Assembly: GCA_963727895.1 (NCBI GenBank)
Contig: CAVSHT010000009.1
Span: 160,001-224,000, forward strand
Length of the DNA stretch: 64,000 nt
Source: an uncultured Methanosarcinaceae archaeon
GTDB lineage: Archaea > Halobacteriota > Methanosarcinia > Methanosarcinales > Methanosarcinaceae
Direction of reading: 5' to 3'
Below, piece by piece: positions 3,545 to 62,540 of this stretch (positions are counted from its first letter, which is position 1; each line of letters begins with the position of its first letter). The notes under the pieces are model-generated. The model did no database searches. It was given only the letters and a program-made list of their open reading frames with translations, and was not told the DNA's origin. The translations under genes and the position numbers were made by a program.

Positions 3545-4284
3545 GGAATTGTTACTTAACTATATCTAGTTATTTATTTCTGTATTTCATCAATAGAATA
3601 ACCGAGTACTTTAGCATTTCAAGACTCTTCGTATAACACTTTGTCTTTCTTCTCAACCTTGCCAGAAAGTGCCTCAATATGCTGTTATATCCTTCAACAG
3701 TATACGTTTTTGTTTTTGATTGAGTATGGATCTTTTCTGGAAGAAACTCTGCATATGCTCTCCAGTGATCTGTCATTACTTCTCCAATGTATTTTTTCTT
3801 CACTTTTTCCCAGAGTAGTTTTCCAGTTTCTGTTCCTCTGCTACCAAAAGAGCAGTTGATGAACTTTTTCCCAACTCTATCAACAGCAATCCAGATCCAG
3901 CAATATTTTTTTTGTTACCGATGTAAGTGTGCATCTCATCCATTTCAACAATAGATATCTCATTTTCGCTTTTTAGAGCCTCCAACTCCTTACCAAATTT
4001 CTTGATCCATTTTTGGACAGAAACATGACTCACCCCTAAAAACCGCCCTATTGAGTGAAAGCCCAATCCTTCAAGATAGAGTTGTAAAGCCTGTTTTTTG
4101 ACAGAAGTGGAAAAAGCAGTTGATTTTAGCTCTACTGTATAGTTATATCCACAATCATGGCATTTGTAGCGTTGACGACCACCAACTATACCATTCTTTT
4201 TGTGACTGGAACTATTGCATCTGGGGCAGTTCATGAAGAAATAGAGGTTCTCATAATAAATAACTATAGTTAATTAGCAAAGCC
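3545..4284 (-). mobile_element. IS1-family element, 740 bp, InsA 3800-4234 / InsB 3570-3803 with slippery A-run
   Basis: InsA Zn-finger CPRC..CHDC + HTH; InsB TDHW..Y..VEGYNS..RHFLARL; imperfect TIRs; 8-bp TSD TAAAAATA (3537-3544, 4285-4292). Confidence 0.95.
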
Positions 4285-4294
4285 TAAAAATATA

Positions 4295-4954
4295 GTGGAA
4301 AATGGCTTCAATTCCGCCTTTCCTGTAATCATTTGGAATAATGCCCTTATCGATGGGCATAATCGTTATCACATATGCCAAAAGCACAAAATTGAATTTG
4401 TATTTATCGAGCAGGACTTTGCTTCAAGATCTGCAGCTAAGATGTGGATTATTGAAAACCAACTTGGCAGGAGAAATATAAACAATATCATAAGAAATGA
4501 TTTGCTTGGTAGATGGTATAATGAAGATAAGAGGTCAAGAGGTAATCCTAACGGATTTGCTCAAATTAACCAATTCCGCAAAAATTGCGGAATTGGTGAT
4601 ACTGAGCCTGCAGACATAATAGTTAAACCTGCAGATATAATAGCTAAACAAGCAGGTGTAAGCTCAAGAACAGTAGAGTATGCAGCAAAGATAACAGAAG
4701 CAATAGACACAATCACTGCAAACACTGGAATTTCCAGAGCTACAATTCTGACTCGAAAAATCAATTACAAGCAGGAAGATTTAACAGACCTTGCAAAGCA
4801 TGACAAAGAATTTCAGCTCAGAGTAATGGAAAAAGTAAAATAAGACAGTGAAGACATTGGCTCTGCAATTATAAAAACTGAACGTGAAGACACTGCCAAA
4901 CAAATGGAAGAACTTGAAGCAAAAAGAAAGCAACTTCAAGATATAAAGAAGTAG
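4295..4954 (+). pseudogene. ParB/Srx-like N-terminal domain protein (viral/plasmid type), 5' end cut by IS1, internal TAA 4841-4843
   Basis: IIWNNALIDGHNRYHIC..WIIENQLGRRN motif, HTH (IAKQAGVSSRTV); frame resumes after TAA to TAG 4952-4954. Confidence 0.75.
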
Positions 4955-6042: not shown

Positions 6043-6745
6043 GACGGTCATAACAGGTATGCTTTGTGCACTAAGAACAACATACCCTTTTAGGGTTGAG
6101 GCTAAAGAGTTTGAATCACGAAATGATGTTTGTATATGGATGCTCCAAAATCAATTCGTTCGACGTAATCTAGATAATTATACTAAAGGTAGTTTGAGCC
6201 TTATATTCGAGGAATATGTTGAGAAACAAGTTGCTGAACGAAAATCAAATGCTATTACACTGTCAAACAAATTACGCTCAGTAAAACTAGAAGAAAACTC
6301 AATTCCGCAGAAATCTGCGGAATTGGAGACTAAGCAGAGAAGAAGAGGAATCGAGACACGCGATGCTGTTGGTAAAGTTGCCGGTGGTCTCTCATGATAC
6401 AATCTACAAAGTAAAAGAAATCAAGTCTCAAACTCCTTCAGCGCTCCTTCCTGAATTGGAGCGTTTAATAATTCCACATGCAGTAAGCATAAATCAAGCT
6501 CATAAATTTGTCCGTGCAATAAAAGCAATTCAAGGAAAAGTACCTGACAAGGTCACAGTTGCAAATAAAATTCTTAATGAGTTCAATCAGAATCCTTCTG
6601 TTTCCCTTGAAAGTAAGACAAAAGACGTAATACGTGAAACTCAGCGTGCAGAAAGAGATAGACAGTTAAGAGAAGCTGAAGAAAAAAGAAAGCAGCTTGA
6701 AGAAGAAGCAAGGCTAAACCGTGAAAAAAGAAATCTCTTAGTTTC
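6043..6745 (+). pseudogene. second ParB-like paralog, 5'-truncated, two frameshifts
   Basis: DGHNRYALC at 6043, WMLQNQFVRRNL, HTH (VGKVAG-VSHDTIYKVK), coiled-coil EKRKQLEE matching paralog 1; shifts near 6088 and 6390. Confidence 0.7.
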
Positions 6746-6746
6746 T

Positions 6747-7073
6747 TTACCATTTCCAATATCCAAACCAACGTATATTTTTAGTGTTAGCCTCCTCTAA
6801 ATTACGAACAAAAAGATCAAATCCTTTTATAAAACATATTGAAGTAACAATTATATTAACTCTTAAATCATTTTCTACATACATCAACCCCATCGAAAAA
6901 TACCATATAGATTTAAATAAGTCAGTACTAAAATCTTTTTTCCATATGTATGCAAGAATTCTTATAATAATGAAAGCAACTGCAGAAAAAGGAATAAACG
7001 CAAAATCTAAATATTTTATAATGTTTCCAGCAAATAACAACCAAATAGAAAGATTCTCAAACATATTCACCAA
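6747..7073 (-). CDS. hypothetical membrane protein
   Basis: 108 aa, about three hydrophobic segments. Confidence 0.55.
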   Translation of the reverse strand: MVNMFENLSIWLLFAGNIIKYLDFAFIPFSAVAFIIIRILAYIWKKDFSTDLFKSIWYFSMGLMYVENDLRVNIIVTSICFIKGFDLFVRNLEEANTKNIRWFGYWKW

Positions 7074-8446: not shown

Positions 8447-8704
8447 TTATTCTTGATTTCCGCCCTGAATTCCCTTCAAGGAACGGATTGCAAGAGCTAC
8501 GAATGTTACTAGGACGACTACACCTACGATATTAACACCATTATTCCAGACTGAAGCACCCGTTGTTGCATTTGCAAAGTCCCCAGATTTATTAACCGGC
8601 ATTGCCTGTGAAACTTTTTCACCAATACCCGGCCCTAAATAGAATATAATAACGAGCGTGAGAAGCCCAACACACATCCCTACAAGTTCGGTCATTGTAC
8701 TCAT
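8447..8704 (-). CDS. two-TM-helix protein, candidate spindle-shaped virus major capsid protein
   Basis: 85 aa; two hydrophobic helices, linker with NKS/NAT sequons, basic tail; AGGTGA RBS and TTTATATA box upstream. Confidence 0.6.
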   Translation of the reverse strand: MSTMTELVGMCVGLLTLVIIFYLGPGIGEKVSQAMPVNKSGDFANATTGASVWNNGVNIVGVVVLVTFVALAIRSLKGIQGGNQE

Positions 8705-8881: not shown

Positions 8882-9775
8882 TTATCCCAACATTGTCCCT
8901 AAACTACCTAAACGATTGTATATAGTTCGTTTTTTATTTATTTGACTAATTGACTTCTTTACGGGGATTTTCACCTCTTTCTTTTTCTTTTTCGCTGAAT
9001 TTTTCTCATCACCGTTTTTCCGCATCAGTAGATATGCTAAACTACTTTTTTGAGTATTAGCCATTCTTACCGAAGCGCTTTTATTGTTAACTGATCCCGT
9101 TGAGTTGCTTGCCCCTTTTGAACCTCTTGAATTCCCCTGCAGTGCAGCTGTGGAGAACTTAGGAAGTGTCAATACTGCTTTTGAAATTTGCTTTGATCCC
9201 TGTGAGCCTTGCTTACTACCGTTTCGATTTATACTGTTGTTAGAGTTTCCAGATTTTGAGTTTGGAGATGCAACAGTCTTTTTTTGTCGAAGACACAGTA
9301 ATTGAGCCCGATCCTAGCATAGTGCTTATATTTCCCAATTTATTGAATATGGTTCTATTTCTGTTTATTTCACTGCTAGTATGCTTCACATACTGCTGTG
9401 ATTTTTTCTTTTTGTTTGTATCTATTACGTCTTTACGCTTTTTTAGCATGTGTAGGAAGGCTATTGAGCTGTTTTTAGCTGAGTACTCCGGTAAGGATTG
9501 CCCGCTTTGTGAAGTTGTGCTTTTTTCTGTCACTGATTTTACACCCTGAGATATTTTTGGGATGTTTAAATTGCTTAATATTTTAGTAATACTTGAAACA
9601 TCCGATATCGTTTTAGGTGAAACTAGTGAGAGGCTTTTGCTTGACTTTGTTCCAGCGGACGCTGAGTTTAACTTTTTACCCGCAGTTGATGCTATTGCAC
9701 TCCTGCTAGATCCTGAACGTTTTACTGCCCCCTTTGAAGAACCTAGCATATTAGGTTGATATTGAGTTGCTTTTT
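8882..9775 (-). pseudogene. C-terminal part of giant Ser/Lys-rich protein (two basic repeat modules)
   Basis: ORFs 9240-9749 and 8882-9172 join via one frameshift in T-run 9279-9285. Confidence 0.65.
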
Positions 9776-10745
9776 TGATCCAAAATCATCACTATATCTC
9801 TTGTTCACGCTTTTCAATTGATGAAACACACAAAAAGAATGAACCACTTCAGGAAAGACGCTTTTTACAGCTCCAATGATTGCTTTATCTTCATCAGAAA
9901 CGATTTTTTGTATTTTGCCTTCTGGAAATCGGTTTTTTATTCGTAGGATAAGAGAAATTAGAGCTTCAATTGTTGGTAACCTGTCAGTTACCTCAAAATC
10001 CAAAATTACCTTTTCTTTTGTAGCGATAACGTAAACGGATTGATATCGCATCTTTTTCCATTTTTTTAATGTAATCTCTCGTCCTATCAGAGTCTCAAAC
10101 TTCTTTTTCCATCCTTTCTTGACCCGATCTCCATCAATATACAAAGTTCCATCAAAATCAGGATTTTGATATAAAAGTTCTTGCTTAGAAAATACAGATT
10201 GTTTTTGCTCATGCAACCATAATGAAGAGGCACAAGGAGCTCTGCCGCATATATCAGTCAAACCTTCTGTATATGTTTCGCCTACCCTACAGGAATTGTG
10301 AAGACTGCATCTGCTATCGTATCTGACAAGCATTTGTTTGTCATAGAACTCATCACTGTAATTTGCGGATCCAGAAACACCAACGATCTGATCATGAAAA
10401 TGCTTTTTACAAGTAGGACAAATCCAGTATGTAGTATTGCAAGTTATGGTGCCATAACTTGTGAGAATTGAACGAGTATAGTGAGAGTTCACATTTAATT
10501 TAGCGCCACAAAAATCACAATGAGTAGGAGATATTAAAGAGAACAGAGAATGAAAGCGATTTTCAACTAGCAATTTCGGCAAAGGAATTAATACATTGCC
10601 TTCAAGTATCGTTTTTACCATTGAATTCTCGATTGATTTATTTCCTCTTCCCATTAAAACGAATTTATCTCAATGAAATTAAAATTTTATTGTTTTGCAC
10701 GATTGAGAAAAAAGAGGTAGACCAGAAAATAATAAAAAGTCTCTA
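9743..10745 (-). mobile_element. truncated DDE transposase (IS256/ISH6/ISNCY-like), CDS 9743-10654
   Basis: Zn-finger CDFC..CPTC, LYIDG, IVSDEDKAIIGAVKSVFP..CVFH; C-terminus and right end missing; ends approximate. Confidence 0.8.
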
Positions 10746-13700
10746 ATCTAGAGACCTCATTTTCAGCATTTTGTGCAGCCCTGTCACGTAAAGATCCGTT
10801 TGGAGCAGTAGCAGCCGAACTGATTTCACCTGCATTACTAATAATTTCATCAAAACCTTTTTTATTCCCCTGATCTTCATAAATAAACTCTTTTTCTCCT
10901 TCGGTTGTCACTCCCACAAGTTTATTAAGTTCTGCTTTAGTCGGAAGTCTATCATTTGTCACAATGAACTCAGCAACTGGGGAATACGCTTTTGATTGTG
11001 TGTTATCTATTATGTTAGGATACTTTTCTGCTACCGCTTTTGTGTAACTTACCACATCTGCAGCTTTACCCGTGCCTTTAATTACTTTGTTCGATGTTCC
11101 GATCTCTACTAGGTCACGAACATCTTTCACCCTGCCTGCGTGAGCAACTTCCACAGACTTTCCACCTTTAAGGAAAGTACTTCCAGCATATTTACGGGCA
11201 GCCTGTTCCTGTAATTTCATTAATTTTACGCCGTCGACTTTCAGCGATTTCAACTCGCCAAAGTTGTAAGCGATACCTTCCTGTTTTTGCCATCCCTGCT
11301 TAAGCTAGTCTTGTGTTTCTGCTATGTCCAAGAGGCTTGACTTTGCGTTATGGTTAAAGACTTCAACTCCTTTTTCCCAGTTCCCATTTACTTTAAAGGC
11401 TATTTTAGGCTCATTGGTGCCTTTATTTTCTACTTTGAAATCCTTGCCTTCTGAAAACCCTTTTTTAGTGGCAGCTGTAGCAAATTTCTGTATATATGCT
11501 GTTGGATTATCAACGTAGATTTCGAGATCTCCGGGGGTACGAGTCAAGTATTTTTCCATTTGCAATTTCTGCGCATTGGAACCCGCAACTTGAATTTTAT
11601 AATCAGTTCCACCTTTTAGAGACCTAACTGCACTTTTTATGCCTGAATCTTTCCCGTATGACTGGATAGACTCTGTTAATGCCGCTCGCATTTTTGTAGG
11701 CACATCAGTACTTAGTATAGAGAATTTCTCAGGATTTACAACTGTATTTTTAGCATTGTAGGCAGCGGTTGCAACACGTTTACCGGCTGCATAATATGTT
11801 TTATCCGCGTCACTGAGTACATCGGATACATACCTATTCAGAATCTTTTCTCCTGTTTTATCGTAGGCCTGAACTGAGCATTCAACTTTTACCTGTTTAC
11901 TTGTTTTTCCCAGTTTATTCAGCTCATTTATCGCATCCACATTTATGTAAGATTTTAGAGTTTCAGCGTTTGGAGCAACGCGACCAAGATGCAACCCGCT
12001 TTTACTGTCAGATGAAACAGTATTTAAGAAAGTTGTACCTTGATGTAGATTTCTAGTGTTTCCGCTTGATCCCAGTGAGGTCTCTTTCAAATCACCCGAT
12101 TTTAGCCCGGGGGTTAATAAGTACGGGTTTTTTGTTTCAAAAGCTTCAGCACCTTTTCCGAAGGCTTTTAATCCTACAGCTAGGGAAGCCACAACATCTA
12201 AGTCTTTTTCAATGTCAGTAAACATGTTAGTGTATTTAGCTGACGATGCTATCATGTCTACGCCCATCACGGCACCCGGTGCAGCTCCAACTGCTTTGGC
12301 TGCATAAGGTACAATTGGCTATCTTAGCACTGCTTTCAGCAACTGGCTTCAAAGCTTTAAGCGTTGCAGCGGATAAACCAAGTTCTGCACCTTTTAAAGC
12401 GGCTCCGCCTATGGCAGACTCTGCAACAAGAACACCAACGTCAGCGGCTGCGTTCAATGGTTGATTTTTAGCATAGTTATACTTGTTTACCTCCCAGTTG
12501 CGAATAGCTGAAAGCCGTGAGTCACTGTCAACTGTTTTTTCCCACTTGTTCATTACACTGTTTCCTAGTGCTTTTCTTAACGCTGAGTTTCCAGCTGTTT
12601 GAACTGTGCTTACATTAGGGATATATTTTGATACTGCTTTATTTGAAGCATCTACTGCAGCAGCGGCCCTTTTATAGCTAAAAGTATCTATAAATTTTGT
12701 ATTTAGCTTTGCGGAGGCTGCTCCAAGTCCGCCATTTTTAATCTCAGCATTATACAGAGCTAAATCAGCCGCTGCTTGTATTTCGGCTGCTTTCTGAGCG
12801 ACTGTTTTAAACGATTGAAGATCTGTAAATGTTGCTTTTTCACCTGTAAGGGTGGAATATCCATTTTTCGCCGTTGCGGTCATCGGGGATACTACTCCGT
12901 AGTTTAGCAACTTTGCAGTAGCCTGCTTTTCCTTTTCCTCCTGAGCCTGCTTTACTTTTTGAATTGCTCCATACTGTGATGCCGTCTTTGAAACTGCTGT
13001 AAGCTTACCGGTTTTATCGGTTCTTAGTACTCTTACCTCTGATTCTCCTGTGCTTGCAGCTCCGTTTGTTTGAATCTGGTGTATAACCCTGTTATTTTTG
13101 CCCACAACGTCTTTAAAAGCCGCATTTAGCTTTTTTGCTGTTTCTGCTTCGATTTTTGCTGCTGCTACTGCCGCAGTGTACCCCGCATTTGAAGTAGCAG
13201 CTTTTGCTCTACCACCTACGGTGGCACCTGTCAGGTATTGTTGAGTTGTAGTTTTTCCCTTTGCAATCATTGCCTTATAGTCGGCTAAATTTTGAGATTT
13301 TTCCGCAACGGAGGAACCATATATTGTTTTAGCAACCTTTGAGTTAGGATTTGAGGCCCCATTTTATTCAATATCAGCTGTCCTGATTAAGGGAGAGGAT
13401 TCCTTTATCACACTAGCATGATTGGAAGTAACTTGTTTCGCTAGTTTGTTCAGATTCTCAGAAGTGGCTTTTGCAGTCGAACAGGTACCAGCCTGCAATT
13501 TCTTTGCTTGTGCAGATATGACTTTGGGAGCTACAGCTTTAACCGCCTGTGTCGTTGCGGTTAATTTTGTTGCGAGTTTTGCAGTAGCAGTTGAGATAAT
13601 TTTTGCGGGTGCTGTTTTTGAAGCTGCAACTGAACCTGAGGTTGCAACTCCCTTGGAGTAGTTTGAACTTTTCGTGTTAGAAGGATTGTTTATATTGTTT

Positions 13701-15055
13701 GCAACATGTGAGACAACCCCCTTTGATTCTAAAGCGGAGCTCTGGGCAAGTTCTTTTTGTATGTCTGCAATCTGTCCCTCTGCCTTAGCATTAGCTGCAT
13801 TGCGAGCAGCTGTAACTGAGGCACTTTCTTTAGCAGCGTCCTCTAGATACACAGGCGGAGACTGTGTATTGGCAGGAGCTTCATAATACCATTTTATATA
13901 TGCAGGGTTGTAATGTTTGCCTGTGTTGTTTGAGGCTTCTCTTGCATTCCACTTGTTGAGTGTCTGCTGTTCTTGAGAATTGAGACTTCCAGAATAATAA
14001 TTTGAAGTTGTAGTATTTGCAGCTGCTGCACTCGCTGCTTTTACTGATTGTGCTTTTACAGTAGCGGTATATGCTTTTTCAATTGCAGTACTATAGGAAT
14101 CTATAGCGGACTGTGCTTCTTTCTGCGTTTTGTATGTGGTTGTTTTAGGCGCAGTTGCAGACACTCCATAAGCCTTTGCAGTCGCTGATAAGGATTTCAC
14201 AGAACTTGATATGTCGTATGTTGTAGTAGTGGTTGCAGTTGCAACTTTAGTAGAGACAGACCCCCCGCTCGAAGAGGTAGTTTTTGCAGAACTACTTGCG
14301 TTTGAGCTTAGTTTTTTATTAACCTCAGTTGTATAACTATCAATTATACTTTGAGCTTTCTTTGAGTCTGTAATTGTTGAGCCATAGATTTTAGGCTTGG
14401 ACACACTTAAACCAGCTGCTACAGCCTGTTTGTAAACACTTGCGAGAGCGGAATCTACGTCATAATACGAAGCGGTCTTAGCTGCCGCTGAAGCTGTGAC
14501 ATTTTTAGCCGCTGTTGCTGCCTTACTAGACTGACTAGATTGACTAGGTTGGCTGGCTTGTGAGGTTGTGGTATATTTTGCAGCAATTAGCTCATTTGCC
14601 TTTGAAACATACGAGTCGACTATGCCTTGAGCTACAGAAGCACTTTTTATGGATTTGCCATAAGAAGCCGGAATGGTTAAACTAACACCATATGCAGCAG
14701 CCTGTGCTTTAATAGATGCAAGTGCAGAATCAATATCATAATATGTATCAGAAACTGTAGATCCAGTACCACGTACTGCAGTGTGATTACTTGTTACATT
14801 TGAAGTTAATTTACTTTTTGATGTTAATGCAGCACTTTTTACAGCGTTTACAACAGTCTGTTTTTTTGCTGAAACTACTGAAGATGAGGACGAGGCAGTT
14901 GTAGATGATGTATTAGCGGCAAGCCGGGCATCGTTGGCAGCTTTAGCCTTTTGAACTTCAGCACCATTTGAACCGGTTACCACTTGAAGCGAGCCGTCTG
15001 CTGCTGTATATTTTAGAATAACCCCGCCACTTGGAGTTGAGCCATAAATTAACAT
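10746..15055 (-). pseudogene. N-terminal ~1430 codons of giant Ala/Ser/Thr/Lys-rich protein, in four ORF fragments
   Basis: 13364-15055 joins 12236-13270 across in-frame TAA; frameshift near 12315 into the 11305-12270 frame; in-frame TAG 11305-11307 joins 10687-11253. Confidence 0.75.
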
Positions 15056-15107: not shown

Positions 15108-15392
15108 TTAAGCTTTCGTTACACGAACAGTTGCAGAAGGCAGCTGGGATTGTAAGTGTTGCTTTACAGCAGCAGCAGGCACATCAAGATTTTTTAAATA
15201 TGTAATTTTATGAGATATTACATACCCCTGCTGTGTTTTAACCGTTGCACCGAAAGTCCCTTTTTGAACCTTGGTTTTAATACGTTTTTTAGCAGCGGAG
15301 GCCTCTGCGAGAGACACAAAGGGGCCGAACTTCTGTTCAACAACTATACGTAATTTTTTAGAGGACGTTTTTTTCATTACCATGGTTGCCAT
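15108..15392 (-). CDS. basic hypothetical protein with SPOR-like GPFxSxAEA motif
   Basis: 94 aa, KFGPFVSLAEASAAKKRI. Confidence 0.65.
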   Translation of the reverse strand: MATMVMKKTSSKKLRIVVEQKFGPFVSLAEASAAKKRIKTKVQKGTFGATVKTQQGYVISHKITYLKNLDVPAAAVKQHLQSQLPSATVRVTKA

Positions 15393-15602: not shown

Positions 15603-16101
15603 TTATAATCTGGATTTCCATGGCGCAATGAGACAGGGGGTATAGGCGGAGCCTACCTTTAGGTCTACACGCTTGTCTGATTCTGTGCAATCGATGTAGA
15701 TTCTACCACGGTCTGTTGTGTCGAAGGCATTGCAGGCGTGACCAAAACCGCGACCAAGAGTGACTGCAACGAATCCGCAGGTTATAACCCGCAGCTTCTG
15801 CATGATTGTGTAGCATTTCGGCATAATCGGCACATTGAAACGAACTATTGTACAACATTTGATCTGTCGTGTCATTATCGACAAAATTGATTACCTGTTC
15901 ATAAGTAACGTATGTTGCATTTGGATTTTCAGTTAGGTTAATGTGGTGTCCATCTGCACCTAAATAATCCAACTTATGTACGTTGGCACTGTCTGAGGGG
16001 AAGAGATATGCGAAAGTTAACATTACTGCAAATACAGCAAATACAGCAAATGCAGCAAAAAAGCCTAAAATACAGACTTCTAGAATATCTTTAAAACCCA
16101 T
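15603..16101 (-). pseudogene. membrane-anchored papain/transglutaminase-like Cys protease, frameshift near 15785
   Basis: N-terminal TM; FQCADYAEMLHNHAEAAG then other frame GHACNAFDTTDRGRIYIDCT (Cys-His-Asp). Confidence 0.65.
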
Positions 16102-20199: not shown

Positions 20200-20800
20200 T
20201 CATAATTTTGAGCGCCCCCTCACCCTGACAGCCTTTTTTGTATTACTCTGTTCCTCCAAAGCTTGCATTTCCAATGGTGCTAACATTAATTTTTGGGTCT
20301 CTACAATTATTCCCAGTAAGTCTATTTTCCCCTTTAAAACCTCAATTTCATCTCGTTCAACTGATAAATGTGCCGCTTCTGCCCGCAAAATATCATTTTC
20401 ATTTTTAATATCTTTATATGCTGCACCCTCTGACACATCAAGTTCTTTTTGGATAGTGAGATAAGGTACAAATTTTTTATAATACTCCTTCAATCCATCA
20501 ACATCCGCTTGATAATAATGGTTTTGTGTAGCAGGCAAAGAGTGCCCCATAAACTCTTCGGCATGGAAAAAGTCACATCCGGCGTTCAACATAGCTGAAT
20601 TAAAATACTTCCGCATGGTATGAGATCGGATTAAACCATAATTTCCCTTCTGAGTTTTCTTACTCGCTTTTGCTGCTAGATCTTTAAAAAGTTGAATAAA
20701 ACCAAATCGGTTAAATACACGCTCTTTTTCGTCAAAAGTATTTAAAAAAGTACTTGCAACCTTGCGGCGACAAAAAAGATAACTTGAGTCGTCATAAATA
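20200..20800 (-). pseudogene. C-terminal half of tyrosine recombinase/integrase
   Basis: IRSHTMRKYFNS (HxxR), EEFMGH, NHYY, C-terminal coiled coil; frame closed upstream of ~20800. Confidence 0.85.
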
Positions 20801-40129: not shown

Positions 40130-41468
40130 TCAGTCGAGCCAGCAAACCTCGCAATTGTCTTCTTTTTTCATGAAGAAGTTTGCAGCTTCAAACCCGGCTT
40201 TTACAGAGCCGTTCATGCTTCTTTCCGGGTAATTGGTTGATGAGAACATTCCTGCCAGGTAAAGTCCGGACGGGCCCGGAGCAAATGGCAGAACTTTTTC
40301 AAGGTACCCCTGTTCATATACAGGCGCAGTATCCATTCTGCGGAAGAGTTTCCCCAGTGGATATCGGTCCTTGAAAAATCAGGAAACATCTTTTCCAGGC
40401 CCTTCAGGTAAGAATCCAGGACTTCTTCTTCCTTCTTCAGCCAGAGAGCATCTTTTCGTCCTGGAAATAGGAGGTTACATAGACAAGGTGTTCTCCATAA
40501 TCCTCAAAAGGCAAAAAATTGGTGTGCTCAATTACGGCTCCAAAAGGCACGTCAGCTTTTATGTTCAACCAGTAATTTCCATCTTCCATAAGCCCTTTGT
40601 CAAGTCCTATAAGGGCACATGCAGTCCCCTGATAACGAATGCTTTGCAGGGTTTCGTGAAGAGCTCCAAGCTTGCCTTTTGTGATTGCATCCAGTACTCT
40701 GGGTTCAACAGTTGAAATCACGGCATCGCAGGGTATAAAATCCCCGTCAGTAACCACTCCCTGCACTGCATTGTCTTTGATTACAATTTCTGTTATTGCT
40801 TTGTTTCGCAAGATCCTGCCCCCCTGTGCAGTGATTTCCCTTGCCAGAGCTTCTATCAGGGAGTTAAACCCTCCTCTCAGGTACCCCAGTTTTTCTCCTT
40901 CTTTTCCCCTATCTGACCTTATTTTCACCCGCCCTATAAGCCAGGCTGCAGAAACATTTTCGGCATTTTCACCGAATTTGCTTTTCATCAGAGGAGCAAA
41001 AAAGTTTTCATATACGGATTTTCCCGCAGTATCAAGAATCCAGTCTTTTGCTTTTATTCTGTCATAGGAAGTCGTATCATTTATCAGCTTAATCCTGAGA
41101 ACCAGCAGGCCAAGTTTTACCAGATCCGTAAAAGAAAGAGGGTTAAACCTTAGAATTTCAGCAGGAGTATTCATAGGATAGTTTTTTCCGTCCACAAAAT
41201 AGGCGTTTTTTCCCTTAAGCCACAGCATTTGATCTTCAAGCCCCAGTTCCCTTATCAGGTCAAGAAGTTCCGAATCGCTCCTGAATATATGGTGGTAGTA
41301 CTTTTCTATAAAGTATTTCTTTCCGGAAAACTCCAGACAATAGCTTGCTGCCATTCCCCCAATTTCAGCATCTTTTTCAAAAATAACAATCTCATTAGAT
41401 TTACAGAGCTTATACCCGGCTGACAGACCTGCAAGCCCGCTTCCGATTATTACGATTTTCATACCCAC
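40130..41468 (-). CDS. FAD-dependent oxidoreductase (protoporphyrinogen/amine oxidase-like), frameshifts near 3' end
   Basis: IIGSGLAGLSAGY, YYHHIF; C-terminus YPERSMNGSVKAG in ORF 40130-40336. Confidence 0.85.
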
Positions 41469-41723
41469 TTTTTCCTTATCTATCTAACTTTTAACCCAAA
41501 TTTGGCTGTTCCTTAAGATTTCAAACCCCTATCTATATATAAAAAAAGTAAAGTGTTATATCTCTTTTTCCACAAAAGTTTGTAGAACCCAGATTCCTTT
41601 AAAAATCACTAATATATCGATATGCTTAACCGCTATATATATTTTAAACTAACTTATATTAGAGAAGCGAATATATTAATTGAGAAATATCTCTGGTAAT
41701 CCAGAGGCTTGAGGGGTAAAGGG

Positions 41724-44469
41724 GTGTATTACGATCAGGAAATCAACTCAGTTTTTGAGGACTTTGGAGTATCAGAAGCAGGTTTGAGTTCTGAGGAAGC
41801 AGAAAAGAGACTTAAAGAGTATGGTGAAAATGAACTTAAAGAAAAAGAAAAAGTCTCAATCCTGCAGCTCTTTCTCTCACAATTTAAAAGTATATTGATT
41901 CTTATCTTGATAATTGCCTCTATTGTTTCTGCCTTGCTTGGGGAGCTAATTGACGCAATAGTGATTATTTTTACGGTTTTTCTTGCAGGCATTCTCAGTT
42001 TTGTGCAGGAATATCGAGCCGAAAAAGCAATTGAGCTTTTAAGATCCCTTACCTCTCCAGAAGCTACTGTAATAAGGGACGGAGTAGAAAAAAAAATTCC
42101 CTCAAAAGAACTTGTTCCCGGCGATCTTATTCTGATTCAAACCGGAGATCGCATTCCTGCGGATGCCAGGGTAATTAAAGAGTTCAATCTCAAAATTGAC
42201 GAATCTTCCCTTACAGGAGAATCCGTGCCAGTCCAGAAGAGCATCGAAGCTCTGCCTTCAGAAACTCCTGAAGCTGACAGGACAAATATGGTCTATGCAG
42301 GAACTGCAGTTGCTTACGGAAGAGGAAATGCGATTGTTACTGCAACCGGAATGAAAACGGCTTTTGGGGAACTGGCCGGGCTTCTGGGAACAATAGAGAG
42401 ATCCAGAACTCCCTTACAGGAAAGCCTTGACAAGTTCGGCAGATGGATTGGGGCTGCAACTCTTATAATTGTGGCTTTTGTCGCAATGCTTGGCGTTTTT
42501 TACGGCTTTCCTCTTCTTGATATGTTTCTCTGGGGAGTTGCCCTTGCGTTGCTGCTATTCCTGAAGCTCTCCCTGCGGTTGTTACGGTAGGACTTGGGCT
42601 TGGAGTAAGGCGTATGGTCAAAAGGCATGCCCTTGTGAGGAAACTACCATCTGTAGAAACTCTTGGAGCCACAAATGTTATCTGTTCGGATAAGACAGGC
42701 ACACTTACCCAGAACAAAATGACGGTTGAAAGAATATGCGCCAATAAGCAGATTTTTAAAGTTACGGGAGCCGGGTACTCTCCTTCAGGAGAGTTCTTCA
42801 AAAGGAGATGAAAAAGCTTCTACTGACGATATTCATCTTCATGTTCTCTTGCTAGGGGCTGTTCTTTGCAATGATGCAGGTCTTTTCAAGAAGAATGAGA
42901 AGTGGAAAATTAAAGGAGATCCTACGGAGGCAGCTCTTCTGGTTGCTGCCGCGAAGGCAGGGCTTAATAAAGTCGAGCTTGATCAAAAGTATCCGCGTCT
43001 TGCGGAAATACCCTTTTCCTCCGAAAGAAAAAGAATGACCACCTTCAGTAAACTGGAAGCCGATTCCGACAGTTTTCCTGTTAGAGGACTGATTGCTTTT
43101 TCAAAGGGAGCACCTGAAGTAATTCTCGGTTCATGTACGAAAATTTTTCTTGATGGTGAAATAAAATCTTTATCTCCTGAAGTAAAGCAGTTGATTGCAG
43201 GTAAAGTCAGGGAAATGGCTGACCAGGCCCTAAGGGTTATGGCTCTCTCTTTCCGTCCTCTTGCTGAAAATACCTCTCTTGAAAAAATTTCTTTCGGAGA
43301 ACATACTATCAGAAGAAATTGAAGATGAGATGGTCTTTTCAGGTTTAATGGGCATGAGAGACCCTCCAAGAGAGGAAGTAAAAGTTGCAATCCAGAAATG
43401 TGCAGACGCAGGCATTAAAACCGTAATGATAACAGGAGACCATAAGATTACAGCGTCTGCAATTGCAAAGGAACTCGGGATTTTAAAGGAAAACGATCTC
43501 ACTCTTACAGGTTCGGAGCTTGATAGCCTTGGGGATACTGAGTTTGAAGACAAAGTTGAAAAGATCTCGGTTTATGCCAGGGTCTATCCTATCCATAAGT
43601 TGAGGGTAATAGATGCTTTTAAGAAAAAAGGCTACGTCGTGGCAATGACCGGAGACGGGGTAAACGATGCCCCTGCCCTTAAAGCTGCAGATATGGGCAT
43701 AGCTATGGGCATTACAGGCACGGATGTCAGTAAAGAAGCTTCAAGCATGATCCTTACGGATGACAATTTTGCGTCCATTGTCGCAGCGGTTGAGGAAGGG
43801 CGAAACATATTTAAAAACATTAGAAATTTTATCACTTATGGACTCTCAGCTCATATCGGGGAGGTTCTCATAGTCCTCATCTCGATCCTGGGATGGCAAA
43901 TCCTGCCTCTTCTTGCGGTTCAGATCCTCTGGATTAACCTGATTACAGATGGACTTCCTCCAATGGCTCTGTCTGTTGAACCTCCTGACAGCGGACTTAT
44001 GAGACAGAAACCAAGAAAACGTTGAGGAAGGGCTTATTACCCGCCGAGAAATTGCAGCCGGGCTGGGAATTGGAGGATTGATTGCTCTTCAGGCTCTTAT
44101 CGTTTTAACCTGGGCTCTTGAAAGAGATTTCCCCATTGAGAAACTGCAGACTCTGATTTTTACACTTGTGGTCTTTTCAGAGATGTTTAACGCCTTTAAC
44201 TGGCGTTCTGATCGATACTCGATTTTTTCCCTTGGGCTTTTTACAAACAAATCTCTGGTTTATGCAGTCCTGACTACAATAATTCTGCAACTGATAGTAA
44301 TTTATGTTCCTTTTTTCCAAACTGCTTTTAGAACAGTTCCACTTTCTCTTTTTGAATGGGAATAGTACTGACTCTTGCTTCTACCACTCTTATTTCTATG
44401 GAAATTGTAAAATACTTTATAGGAGACAGCTATCAGGAGAAAAAACATGGAAAAACGAATTTCGATTAA
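41724..44469 (+). CDS. P-type cation (Ca2+-like) ATPase, split by about five frameshifts
   Basis: TGES, DKTGT, KGAPE, TGDGVND across consecutive fragments. Confidence 0.9.
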
Positions 44470-59984: not shown

Positions 59985-61195
59985 TTTTTACACACCACCA
60001 ATTACTGAAGTTATCCCCATTTGGATATGGATCTACCCCTATAATAATCTTTGTGTATCAAAGATGCTGAACAGCCAAGTTTTTTCATAAATTTCGGGTC
60101 ATTTATGTTTTTATAATCGCTTTTAAAGCGCTATAAATGGTCTGTCCACTAGTTATAATACTAGATATTTTAGAGAAGATATTCTCAAAATTATAAGGGG
60201 TACCATGAAATTTCTTTTTTCAGATATAGTATATGCTTCCAGGTTATGAAGCAAAGTTATTTTGTAGTTAGATTCATCGTATATATATTCGTTTTGAAAT
60301 AATATCAAGTAAAAAAAGATGTTTAAAAATTATAAGTGTGTATATAAATTAAATAATTTTTTTATTAATACCACCCTTTGGCAAAAGAAAATTAAATAAG
60401 TAATGTTAAGCAAATGTTTACAAAAAATTAATTTATATGAATAGCTAATTGGGTAAGACCTGTACAGAATAAGTTAAAATTTTTTAATAAAAGATAGAAG
60501 TTTGGATACAAAGTGTTTTATTTCTTTTTTATAAGAACTTTATTAATTAAAAATACTAAGTGATAATATATATTCAAAATGATCAAAAAATTCAAAGATA
60601 AAATATCAACCACTTATTTATGGACGACTGATTGATTGAAAGTAAACATTAATAAGACAAGAGCTTACTTCAGATAAGTTTAAAATAAAGAACGTGTTTT
60701 AAAACACTCGATTTTCATAAAAATCAGGGTAAAACATCAAGAGTTAAATTTTTAAATTATAACATTGCAGCTAAAATGTACTTTATAAGTATGCTTTATA
60801 ATATGAGATCTATTAATTGGAACTTCTGTATTATACCTTAAAGAAGGTACAAAAAAGAAATAAAGATACCACAAAACGGTCTTTACTCTTTTTTCGTCAC
60901 ACATATTATTTCTAATGTAGTGGAAAGGATTAATAGATACATAATGATTATGAATATACCCTTGATATTTAACGAAAAATGAATCTTTAGTTTAATTCCA
61001 ATATACAATCAAACTTCAATTATTATTCAATATTAAATTCCATTACTCAGAATTCAAAAATAAGATCCACTATTTACACAACCAATACCTAACATTGAAC
61101 CTTCAATAGTAAATTGAGTGACGCAGTTACAAAGCTTGATTGTCCTGCTCTCAAATTAGAATATTCAGAGTTAATATATCAGATGGTGTGAGTAT

Positions 61196-62540
61196 ATGGC
61201 TGAAGATATTAAAACTAAGGTAATACAGGCAAAAAAGGCATCAATAGAACTTTCCAGTGTAAACACAGAAATAAAAAACAGAGCTCTTGAGACCATGGCT
61301 CAAGCTCTGGACAAAGAAAGGAAAGCCATAATAGAAGCAAACGCAAAAGATCTTGAATATGCAGCGGAACTGAAAAAGAAAGGAAAGCTAACTCAGGCGC
61401 TTGTGGACAGACTTAAAGTAAGCGACTCAAAGATTGATGGAATGATTGCAGGAATTAGAGATGTAATAAAGTTAAAAGATCCAGTAGGAGATACCCTGTC
61501 TACTCTTGAACTGGACAAAAATCTGATACTTTATCAAGTGAGTTGTCCAATTGGCCTTATAGGAGTTATCTTTGAATCCCGACCTGATGTGGTGCCTCAG
61601 GTTATGTCTCTTTGCCTTAAGAGCGGGAACGCGACAATCTTTAAAGGTGGAAGCGAAGCTCGAGAGTCTAACCGCACTATATTTCAAATTCTTGTAAAAG
61701 CAATAGAATCTACCGACGGTATGCCAGCAGATGCGTTCCAGCTTATGGAAACCAGAGAAGAAATAATGGATCTTTTGAGCCTGGATGCCTACGTAGACCT
61801 CCTGATTCCCAGAGGATCAAACGAGTTTGTAAAGTTCATCCAGGAAAATACGAAGATTCCGGTACTCGGGCATACAAGTGGGATCTGCCATATCTATGTG
61901 GATGAGTATGCAGATCTCGATATAGCCTGGAAAGTCTGCTTCGATGCGAAAGTACAATATCCTGCTGTGTGCAATGCTATTGAAACCCTTCTGATAAACC
62001 GTAAGATTGCAGACGCTTTCCTGCCGAAAATGGCAGAGATGTACCTTGGTGCAGAGGTCGAACTGCGCTGTGATCAGGATACATACTCACTACTTGAAAA
62101 AAGAGGGACTTTCTCCTTTATCAAAGGCTACGGAAGAAGACTGGAGCCTGGAATACAATGACCTAATTCTTTCAATAAAAGTAGTTGACAATATAAAAGA
62201 AGCAATTGATCACATAAACACATTCGGTTCCCACCATACCGATGGAATAATAACTGAAGATGCCTTAAGAAGAAAAAAGTTTACAGGGCTTGTTGATTCT
62301 TCGAGTGTTATGGTAAACGCATCAACCCGTTTTGCGGACGGTTATCGCTATGGAAAAGGAGCTGAGGTTGGGATCAGCACAAACAAAATTCATTCTCGTG
62401 GACCTGTAGGCATGGAAGGACTACTGATCTACAAATATATATTACTTGGAAAAGGGCAAATTGTTGCAGATTATGCAGGAGAAAATGCAAAGCCCTATAC
62501 TCACAAGAAACTTAACCTTAAGTTTGAAGATGTAAACTGA
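61196..62540 (+). CDS. proA: gamma-glutamyl phosphate reductase, frameshift in A-run ~62097-62102
   Basis: [19 protein letters not shown]; second frame [21 protein letters not shown]. Confidence 0.93.

Follow-up and report, generated by a model that had tools for sequence, protein, structure and literature searches.

Six open reading frames (ORFs) follow one another on the minus strand of a stretch of DNA from an uncultured archaeon of the Methanosarcinaceae, and the question that they raise is whether they are six genes or the remains of one and, if one, what kind of protein it encoded. The stretch (the window; 64 kb, G000:C9:160001-224000) belongs to genome G000, which is assembled in 19 contigs totaling 3.67 Mb at 84% completeness, and all gene and feature coordinates given below are positions in the window unless another contig or a related locus (L011 and the like) is named. 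An initial annotation, made from the DNA letters, had taken the six ORFs for fragments of one giant modular protein that served either as an ejection or pilot protein of a virion or as a delivery protein of the polymorphic-toxin kind. The explanation that best accounts for our results as a whole, and that we regard as likely, is that the six ORFs are one dead gene of a decayed, integrated virus-like element, and that the relatives of this gene encode proteins with a nucleotidyltransferase core.

The interrupted gene and its homologs

When its three frames are read together, the minus strand between 8885 and 15055 forms one gene of ~1,730 codons interrupted at five junctions. Frame 1 is open from 15118 to 13367 and, after a TAA, from 13363 to 12239; frame 2 is open from 12318 to 11308 and, after a TAG, from 11304 to 10690; a transposase ORF (9743-10654) comes next, after which frame 0 is open from 9785 to 9243 and frame 1 from 9313 to 8885. 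Direct inspection of the junction sequences in the window DNA located all five where the initial annotation had placed them, and the architecture that it had described, with N-terminal repeats, A/S/T/K linkers, Ala/Gly hydrophobic stretches and two basic C-terminal modules, was found as well (its statement that there is no signal peptide was a judgment by eye). The pieces, whose lengths sum to 563 + 348 + 337 + 187 + 165 + ~132 = ~1,730 aa, and the interruptions between them are:

13367..15055, minus strand: piece A, the N-terminal 563 aa, with ATG at 15055, three repeats of ~55 aa and Ala/Ser/Thr/Lys-rich linkers
13364..13366, minus strand: in-frame TAA between pieces A and B, with the same frame on both sides; a homolog alignment crosses it
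12320..13363, minus strand: piece B, 348 aa, in the frame of piece A, ending in the first Ala/Gly-rich hydrophobic stretch (~12400-12460)
12316..12322 (~12318), minus strand: +1 frameshift that takes piece B (frame 1) into piece C (frame 2), outside any long homopolymer
11308..12318, minus strand: piece C, 337 aa, with the second Ala/Gly hydrophobic stretch, a predicted beta-rich subdomain and the predicted nucleotidyltransferase core
11305..11307, minus strand: in-frame TAG that separates piece C from piece D, which share a frame; it falls in a loop of the enzyme domain that is variable
10744..11304, minus strand: piece D, 187 aa, covering the helical half of the enzyme domain and the first part of the tail, cut by an insertion sequence (IS)
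9777..10743, transposase on the minus strand: truncated MULE-type IS, with ~970 of 1,585 bp present and the 611 bp for the transposase C-terminus missing
9282..9776, minus strand: piece E, a basic Ser/Thr/Lys-rich tail of 165 aa, pI 10.5, ending in RTIFNKLGNISTMLG
9279..9285, minus strand: A7 run with the +1 frameshift that takes piece E (frame 0) into piece F (frame 1)
8882..9281, minus strand: piece F, the last basic module, ~132 aa, pI 11.3, ending in RTIYNRLGSLGTMLG and then the TAA stop at 8882-8884

The case for a single gene is carried by its homologs. The search for full-length homologs that the initial annotation had called for turned up intact ones in sister genomes: a 321-aa piece has matches in 7 of the 177 genomes of the taxonomic family, and outside G000 each match lies within an uninterrupted frame of 876-1,995 aa. 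A profile of the enzyme domain matched 9 of the 392 genomes of the class, and the frame is open over 481-1,995 aa, with no stops, in all eight others, G000 alone returning '1 TAG'; a homolog split at the junction positions, which the initial annotation had named as the observation that would speak against a single gene, was found in none of the eight. Across the loci that we read the giant ORFs span 834-1,987 aa, and the N-terminal repeat region was matched only within the giant ORFs of L011, L016, L022 and L010, never as a gene of its own. When the window was searched by tblastn with the intact 1,987-aa homolog (P0002, which has a masked stretch), two high-scoring segment pairs, 14986..12326 and 12336..10918, ran through both the TAA and the TAG with a joint E of 2e-133, and the 1,664-aa homolog (P0001, like P0002 from the same genus) gave the same coverage, 14986..10918 in two frames, with a joint E of 2e-100. 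Far beyond chance, these alignments support the reading of the six ORFs as what remains of a single gene for one giant protein, as had been proposed at first sight. That the pieces are instead separate functional genes in a row is hardly credible: a mechanical ORF list does offer a possible start codon for each of them, but the homologs are single ORFs, the alignments cross every point junction, the TAG would cut the conserved enzyme domain in two and the repeats are nowhere a separate gene, and we consider the idea refuted by the open frames of the homologs and by the tblastn matches through the junctions.

Over 224 aa, piece A shares 42% identity with the repeat region within the intact giant ORFs of L011, L016 and L022; its repeats (YYDxDSAL...AQxIIDSY) start at aa 105, 197 and 280, that is, at nt 14743, 14467 and 14218, and tandem repeats at the DNA level were not found within the gene. 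The Ala/Gly-rich stretches at ~12240-12460 are moderately hydrophobic (Kyte-Doolittle 1.2-1.5). Piece C, whose fold is taken from a model of the homologous stretch of P0001, carries the catalytic motifs AGS (11586-11566), GDLEIYV (11532-11512) and KGVEVF (11373-11356), and piece D carries MKLQEQAARK (11220-11191) and GRVKDVRDLVEIG (11136-11098). The tails of close relatives end in a common motif, R-x-I-x-N-x-L-G-x-x-x-S/T-M/F-L/F-G, which the end of piece E resembles, and it is this shared C-terminal motif, together with composition, that suggests that the tail pieces E and F belong to the rest of the gene across the IS.

The IS itself encodes a transposase with Pfam domain PF10551 (E 2.6e-7; 31.4 bits against a cut-off of 27.6). 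Its ends in the giant gene were set by other copies in the genome and by public contigs: four further copies in G000 (L032-L035; contigs C14, C11 and C13), 99% identical, define the full length of 1,585 bp and continue past 9777, and contigs from four public runs break away from the window at 9777, their loose ends carrying the same sequence that the full copies have there. MULE-type elements are on record for Methanosarcina (MA1896 type; PMC4158269), and the IS here resembles them in its PF10551 transposase and in its several near-identical genome copies; the copy in the giant gene differs in that it lacks 611 bp that full copies have, so the gene underwent an insertion of the IS and then a deletion. 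Copies L034 and L035 share an internal deletion of ~232 bp.

Single-base insertions have hit essential genes in this assembly, so apparent frameshifts and pseudogenes in it need read support. The essential isoleucyl-tRNA synthetase gene (IleRS; G000:C11:133794-136979, outside the window) has three 1-nt insertions, all outside homopolymers, relative to a same-genus ortholog with 94% protein identity. The pyrrolysyl-tRNA synthetase gene pylS (TIGR02367; G000:C12:42192-42909, also outside the window) appears as two pieces that overlap in different frames and contain one TGA, a split that is probably the same kind of assembly error; mcrA, rpoB and ATP synthase subunits are present and intact. Inside the window, the following conserved host genes have 1-nt indels:

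40133-41477: amine-oxidase-like gene, two frame shifts
41700-44362: P-type ATPase gene, five 1-nt indels
61175-62537: proA-like gene, one frame shift

The two frameshifts in the giant gene (~12318 and 9279-9285) are therefore probably assembly artifacts, as the same +1 single-base type occurs three times in IleRS and there are the other indels besides. We take the IS and both stop codons (TAA and TAG) to be probably real, the stops because no genuine in-frame stop turned up among ~10.8k aligned residues of host proteins, where the only candidate is upstream of a start codon. With the IS cutting off its tail and two nonsense codons upstream of the IS, the giant gene is dead in this genome. Partial read-through of the TAG at 11305 as pyrrolysine is conceivable, as TAG is a rare stop (it terminates 40 of the 1,058 ORFs of at least 300 aa in the genome) and the genome has pylS. 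It is improbable that, except for the IS, the gene is intact in the organism, its TAA, TAG and both frameshifts being assembly errors or its TAG a pyrrolysine codon: the indels in IleRS (three), the P-type ATPase gene (five), pylS and other conserved genes would fit that idea, as would the +1 type common to both frameshifts, the rarity of TAG as a stop alongside pylS, and point-lesion sites that public reads leave without cover, but two stop-creating substitution errors within 5 kb are unlikely when the host proteins show none, the TAA has no known read-through here, and the reduction of the element's integrase to 138 aa fits real decay.

Five public runs share small parts with the window, and four of them were compared in detail; exact matches besides the IS are at 10867-11017, 11689-11839, 12023-12256, 13147-13326, 13907-14098 and 14226-14389. 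The match at 13147-13326 is a 180-base metatranscriptome contig (run X3) identical to the giant gene, which may be carried-over DNA and does not show transcription.

The enzyme domain and its family

The only part of the family that folds with confidence is, as modeled, a beta-rich subdomain together with a Pol-beta-type nucleotidyltransferase core. The conserved domain is 367 residues long (P0001 988-1354), and its AlphaFold2 (AF2) model has a pLDDT of 90 and a pTM of 0.89; a whole-protein model of a 955-aa member is confident only at ~340-700, the N-terminal part and the tail (703-955) having pLDDT values below 50. A Foldseek search of the PDB with the domain returned Pol-beta-type nucleotidyltransferases as all of its top matches (best E 1.5e-3), including Megavirus poly(A) polymerase, CCA-adding enzymes, JHP933, terminal uridylyltransferases (TUTases) and Pol beta/lambda/mu. 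VIA-align, run against 48,161 chains, aligned 137-187 residues within model residues ~118-338, with Z 7.8 for Megavirus poly(A) polymerase (4p37), 7.2 for LnuA, 7.0 for TM1012, 7.0 for JHP933, 6.6 for VP55, 6.4 for MenT1, 6.3 for TglT and 5.9 for MenT4.

In the numbering of the modeled domain, G160, S161, D178 and E180 (hG[GS] followed by [DE]h[DE]h) and also E233 are invariant, in 5 of 5 and in 17 of 17 aligned members; E233 is the third acidic residue, on a later strand, and by eye it is D in the distant members P0066 and P0077. The copy in the window keeps the invariant catalytic residues, and the strict motif pattern is fitted by 59 of the best 150 of the 184 cluster representatives described below. 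Despite middling scores, we assign the domain to the Pol-beta type because the fold matches are uniform in kind and the catalytic pattern is invariant. The likeness to known members of that superfamily (the poly(A) polymerases of Megavirus and Mimivirus, 4p37/4wse; LnuA, 4wh5; TM1012, 2ewr; JHP933, 4ok0; vaccinia VP55; CCA-adding enzymes) takes in the core fold at ~118-338, the GS, the DxE, the third acidic residue on its later strand and a helical subdomain after the core. The family differs from them in having no sequence-level match to any PDB chain or Pfam family, and in that the domain forms part of proteins 800-2,600 aa long that also have a beta-rich subdomain ahead of it, hydrophobic Gly/Ala segments and a disordered basic tail.

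A second likeness is to the AbiEii/DUF1814/MenT toxins, to which the fold neighbors JHP933, MenT1, TglT and MenT4 belong with the VIA-align Z values just given, and which share a helical domain with a conserved R/K-D; a weak PADLOC match to AbiEii covers residues 166-308 (14 bits, E 0.0058). The family differs from these toxins in that it is not a stand-alone protein of ~250 aa, and no AbiEi-type partner was seen. Identity with AbiEii (PF08843) was rejected, with no match at E<=10, none in 37 members, and a probability of 0.06% in hhalign comparison with five archaeal AbiEii proteins.

Seventeen relatives, all without a Pfam domain, came from a word-indexed search, and a full profile search extended the family to 184 cluster representatives at E<=1e-3, 47 of them at E<=1e-30. 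Among the best 150 of the 184, 91 are at least 800 aa long, 31 have 500-799 aa and 28 fewer than 500 aa (median 865, maximum 2,596 aa). None of 37 members scanned has a Pfam domain over the cut-off, and scans of the pieces and the intact homologs with Pfam, PHROGs, NCBIfam and PADLOC gave nothing above threshold; a search of the ESM Atlas with family member P0011 gave no usable match, neither piece A nor the domain profile matched a PDB chain by sequence, and our literature searches found no description of the giant-protein family. The family is thus unannotated, with no Pfam, NCBIfam or PHROGs entry. It occurs in small integrase-bearing elements of Methanosarcinaceae and Archaeoglobaceae, the related loci being from Methanosarcina sp., a Methanosarcinaceae archaeon, Methanomethylovorans sp. 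and an Archaeoglobaceae archaeon.

The shorter forms of the protein, of about 830-1,100 aa, are without the N-terminal repeats. In distant members, compared by eye, the order is constant: the hydrophobic Gly/Ala region comes first, then the beta region and GS...DxD/E, then a helical part containing EQ..RK and R.KD, and finally the low-complexity tail. The initial annotation had suggested asking whether the central enzymatic domain varies between homologs, as it might in a toxin; the domain, with its invariant GS, DxE and E, proved instead to be the conserved core of the family, and the N-terminal repeats and the basic tail are its variable parts.

The element around the gene

Intact relatives lie in small elements of about 15-20 kb that also encode a tyrosine integrase, a P-loop ATPase, surface-type proteins and a two-helix membrane protein. 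In a same-genus genome, the intact gene is in a stretch of ~18-20 kb between the host IleRS and ATP synthase genes, and the order there runs from the integrase and a DnaG-type primase-DUF927 fusion through three small genes to the giant gene, after which come an 82-aa two-helix protein, an IS200/605 insertion, another three small genes and a P-loop ATPase of 312 aa. At L011:13675-15119, in G123 (which, with G118, is among the genomes with intact relatives), what looks by eye like an IS200/IS605 pair, a TnpA-like ORF of 137 aa and a TnpB-like ORF of 344 aa, directly follows the two-helix gene; a TnpB gene (PF01385, PF07282) is also present in L015. Integrases at the other loci are of PF00589 or PF16795, and the replication genes vary from element to element between an AEP primase, a DUF927 protein with a Cch helix-turn-helix (HTH) and a rolling-circle Rep. 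Those loci also have an ATPase of ~280-310 aa with weak Zot/nSTAND3 matches, and a BLASTP comparison of the element ATPase with His1 ORF16 gave E 2.3. Large proteins with PKD, DUF2341 or CarboxypepD_reg domains adjoin the giant gene in three elements (L012:3668-6760, L018:11739-14435 and L014:4815-7211), and these are better candidates for host adhesion than the giant protein itself.

In the window, the recognizable neighbors of the giant gene are:

8447..8704, minus strand: 85-aa two-helix protein (the capsid candidate of the initial annotation), downstream of the giant gene; in L011 the ORF directly following the giant gene is 61% identical to it
15108..15392, minus strand: 94-aa basic protein, directly upstream of the giant gene also in L010, L011 and L014
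15603..16101, minus strand: gene for a small membrane-anchored protein, split by a +1 shift at 15779-15781, the halves matching one 158-aa ORF of a related element
20200..20616, minus strand: C-terminal remnant (138 aa) of a tyrosine integrase, PHROG 1 integrase, E 1.1e-6

The integrase remnant matches full-length integrases of 383-537 aa in L023, L017 and L026 and probably marks the upstream end of the decayed element. What the window shares with the nearest intact element is the small upstream protein, the split membrane protein, the giant gene and, at 61% identity, the two-helix protein. The last of these, which also matches L014 and L015, is kept beside or near the giant gene; the two-helix proteins are 82-89 aa long, with two hydrophobic stretches in 4 of 4 homologs and a weak match to TrbC/VirB2 (E 0.35). 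The topology does not discriminate in favor of a capsid protein because conjugative pilins share it. The expectation that the giant gene lies upstream of a capsid gene, and its homologs beside homologs of a major capsid protein, was borne out as far as a conserved neighbor goes; homology of that neighbor to capsid proteins was not found in comparisons with His1 VP21, PDB chains, Pfam, PHROGs and a phage collection.

The protein at 15603-16101 has an N-terminal hydrophobic helix and, by eye, a Cys...His...Asp pattern resembling that of transglutaminase-type cysteine proteases, with no library support; a role for it as a protease of the tail motif was considered and dropped, as its co-occurrence with the giant gene is limited to the window and a single related element and it matches no known family. 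Farther downstream of the giant gene, two adjacent minus-strand ORFs at 3570-4234 have the appearance of an IS1-type transposase that has been split, and the plus-strand ORFs 4295-4843 and 6059-6800 appear related to each other, with the look of ParB nucleases (all by eye), and share a 67-nt repeat (4875-4941 and 6637-6703, 72% identity); ORFs 4295-4843 and 6363-6800 have no PHROGs match. Elsewhere the window encodes an S-layer protein (PF07752) with PGF-CTERM and a FilR1 regulator, which, with the mcrA and pylS of the genome, are the kind of gene content that identifies a member of the Methanosarcinaceae.

Roles for the giant protein

What the protein was for can be approached through the company it keeps. 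We tentatively propose that it is a component of the transmissible particle of the element. In such a particle, the variable N-terminal repeats would face outward, the Gly/Ala segments would sit in a lipid or coat layer together with the two-helix protein, and the basic tail would be bound to the packaged DNA; the nucleotidyltransferase might then enter a new host with the genome and add nucleotides to a nucleic-acid 3' end or to host RNA. The gene neighborhood, with its two-helix protein, ATPase and surface proteins, fits the earlier suggestion of a virion ejection or pilot protein, which is thus supported in part; capsid homology was not found.

Some links to viruses were found. Two relatives of the giant gene are on IMG/VR contigs. 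A Foldseek search of BFVD with the enzyme domain had as its best match an unnamed 1,041-residue entry (A0A5P9U643_2; E 8.5e-7, TM 0.54) and as its second the 1,125-aa A0A514K2U2 of a Nitrosopumilus spindle-shaped virus of the Thaspiviridae (E 5.3e-5), followed by poly(A) polymerases of giant viruses. These best structural matches among viral proteins are thus themselves more than 1,000 aa long, and NSV1 has an 81-aa two-helix capsid protein (PMC8491892) that resembles the 85-aa neighbor here; NSV1 differs in its linear genome and protein-primed polymerase, the elements here carrying integrases and other replication genes. The 85-aa protein also resembles the capsid proteins SSV1 VP1 and His1 VP21 in being ~80 aa long, with two hydrophobic helices, and in lying beside the largest gene of a small archaeal element. 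Spindle-shaped viruses that infect Methanosarcina have been described (PMC9796341), and the family Eurekaviridae, with Methanosarcina spindle-shaped virus 1 (PMC12451623), has the same host group as the element in the window. The one 'nucleotidyltransferase' in PMC9796341 is a minimal nucleotidyltransferase on a contig of a head-tailed virus. Pleolipovirus-like viruses of Archaeoglobus have a conserved morphogenetic block and an NTPase (PMC10919331). Both the protein and its proposed delivery have an analogy, by design if not by descent, in bacteriophages. Some phages package giant enzymes or ejection proteins in their virions, as with the N4 virion RNA polymerase and T7 gp16, and the giant protein is like these in being very large and modular with one central enzymatic domain that would be delivered with the genome; it has no homology to them, and the parallel is one of analogy only.

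Several results weigh against our reading of the locus as a decayed virus-like element with a gene of this kind. Homology to virion, capsid or packaging proteins was not found, and tblastn with the enzyme domain against 50,697 phage records matched nothing. The similarity to the Nitrosopumilus virus protein is weak and structural only (TM 0.20, rmsd 18), and the fold-search Z values of 7-8 are in a range that VIA-align calls common, uniform though the kind of match is. The two-helix protein gave a probability of 0.85% in hhalign comparison with His1 VP21, from a thin profile of four sequences, and had no match among PDB chains and no significant match in Pfam, PHROGs or, by tblastn, the phage collection. 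The tail pieces E and F have no tblastn match at E<=1e-4, and none of the four point lesions is covered by the four public runs compared, which therefore neither confirm nor refute them. Finally, the window lacks homologs of both the primase and the ATPase that the nearest intact element has, and positions 1-23000 hold no convincing att direct repeats; it is for these reasons, and because the integrase is a remnant, that we regard the element as a decayed copy.

Should the particle be given up, the giant protein could be intracellular and serve a plasmid-like integrated element as a replication accessory, as a modifier of RNA or tRNA or as a counter-defense nucleotidyltransferase, with its membrane-seeking segments and basic tail used for localization or DNA binding. 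We think this rather unlikely. It would fit the failure to find capsid homology, the diverse replication genes of the elements, which are as in plasmids, the stand-alone toxin-antitoxin and resistance enzymes among the structural neighbors (MenT1, TglT and LnuA) and the weak PADLOC match to AbiEii, although the last has to be set against the negligible probability of the AbiEii profile comparison; against it, the gene stays with the ATPase, surface-protein and two-helix genes while replication genes are swapped, and the contigs of two relatives are classed as viral by IMG/VR. A delivery protein of the polymorphic-toxin kind, with a conserved trafficking part, a variable toxic enzyme and an immunity gene, has little to recommend it beyond a large modular protein with repeats and an enzyme fold that MenT and AbiEii toxins also use, and we hold it to be very improbable. 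Its variable parts are the wrong ones: this half of the initial proposal loses its support because the enzyme domain is conserved, an invariant core across 184 representatives, and it is the N-terminal repeats and the tail that vary. Moreover, no signal or secretion domain was found in any library scanned, and the gene is always in integrase-bearing elements.

If the protein is indeed a particle component, a wider and more doubtful idea may be entertained, namely that it is the hallmark of an unrecognized but widespread group of small archaeal viruses that package an enzyme held to their DNA by the basic tail. Among the hosts of such a group would be Methanosarcinaceae and Archaeoglobaceae and, judging from the structural similarity, the thaumarchaea that spindle-shaped viruses infect; the enzyme would be delivered into the next host as an archaeal counterpart of the virion-borne polymerases of phages, and the repeated 'N-x-L-G...M-L-G' tail modules could be processing or packaging signals.

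The viruses and mobile elements of methanogens are poorly known, and almost all of their largest genes are unannotated. The dead copy in the window leads to a coherent family, of 184 representatives, with a single well-defined enzymatic core that is suited to expression and assay. If the protein is carried in particles, archaeal viruses would have a virion enzyme of a new kind, and metagenomes could usefully be searched for such elements with the protein as a marker.

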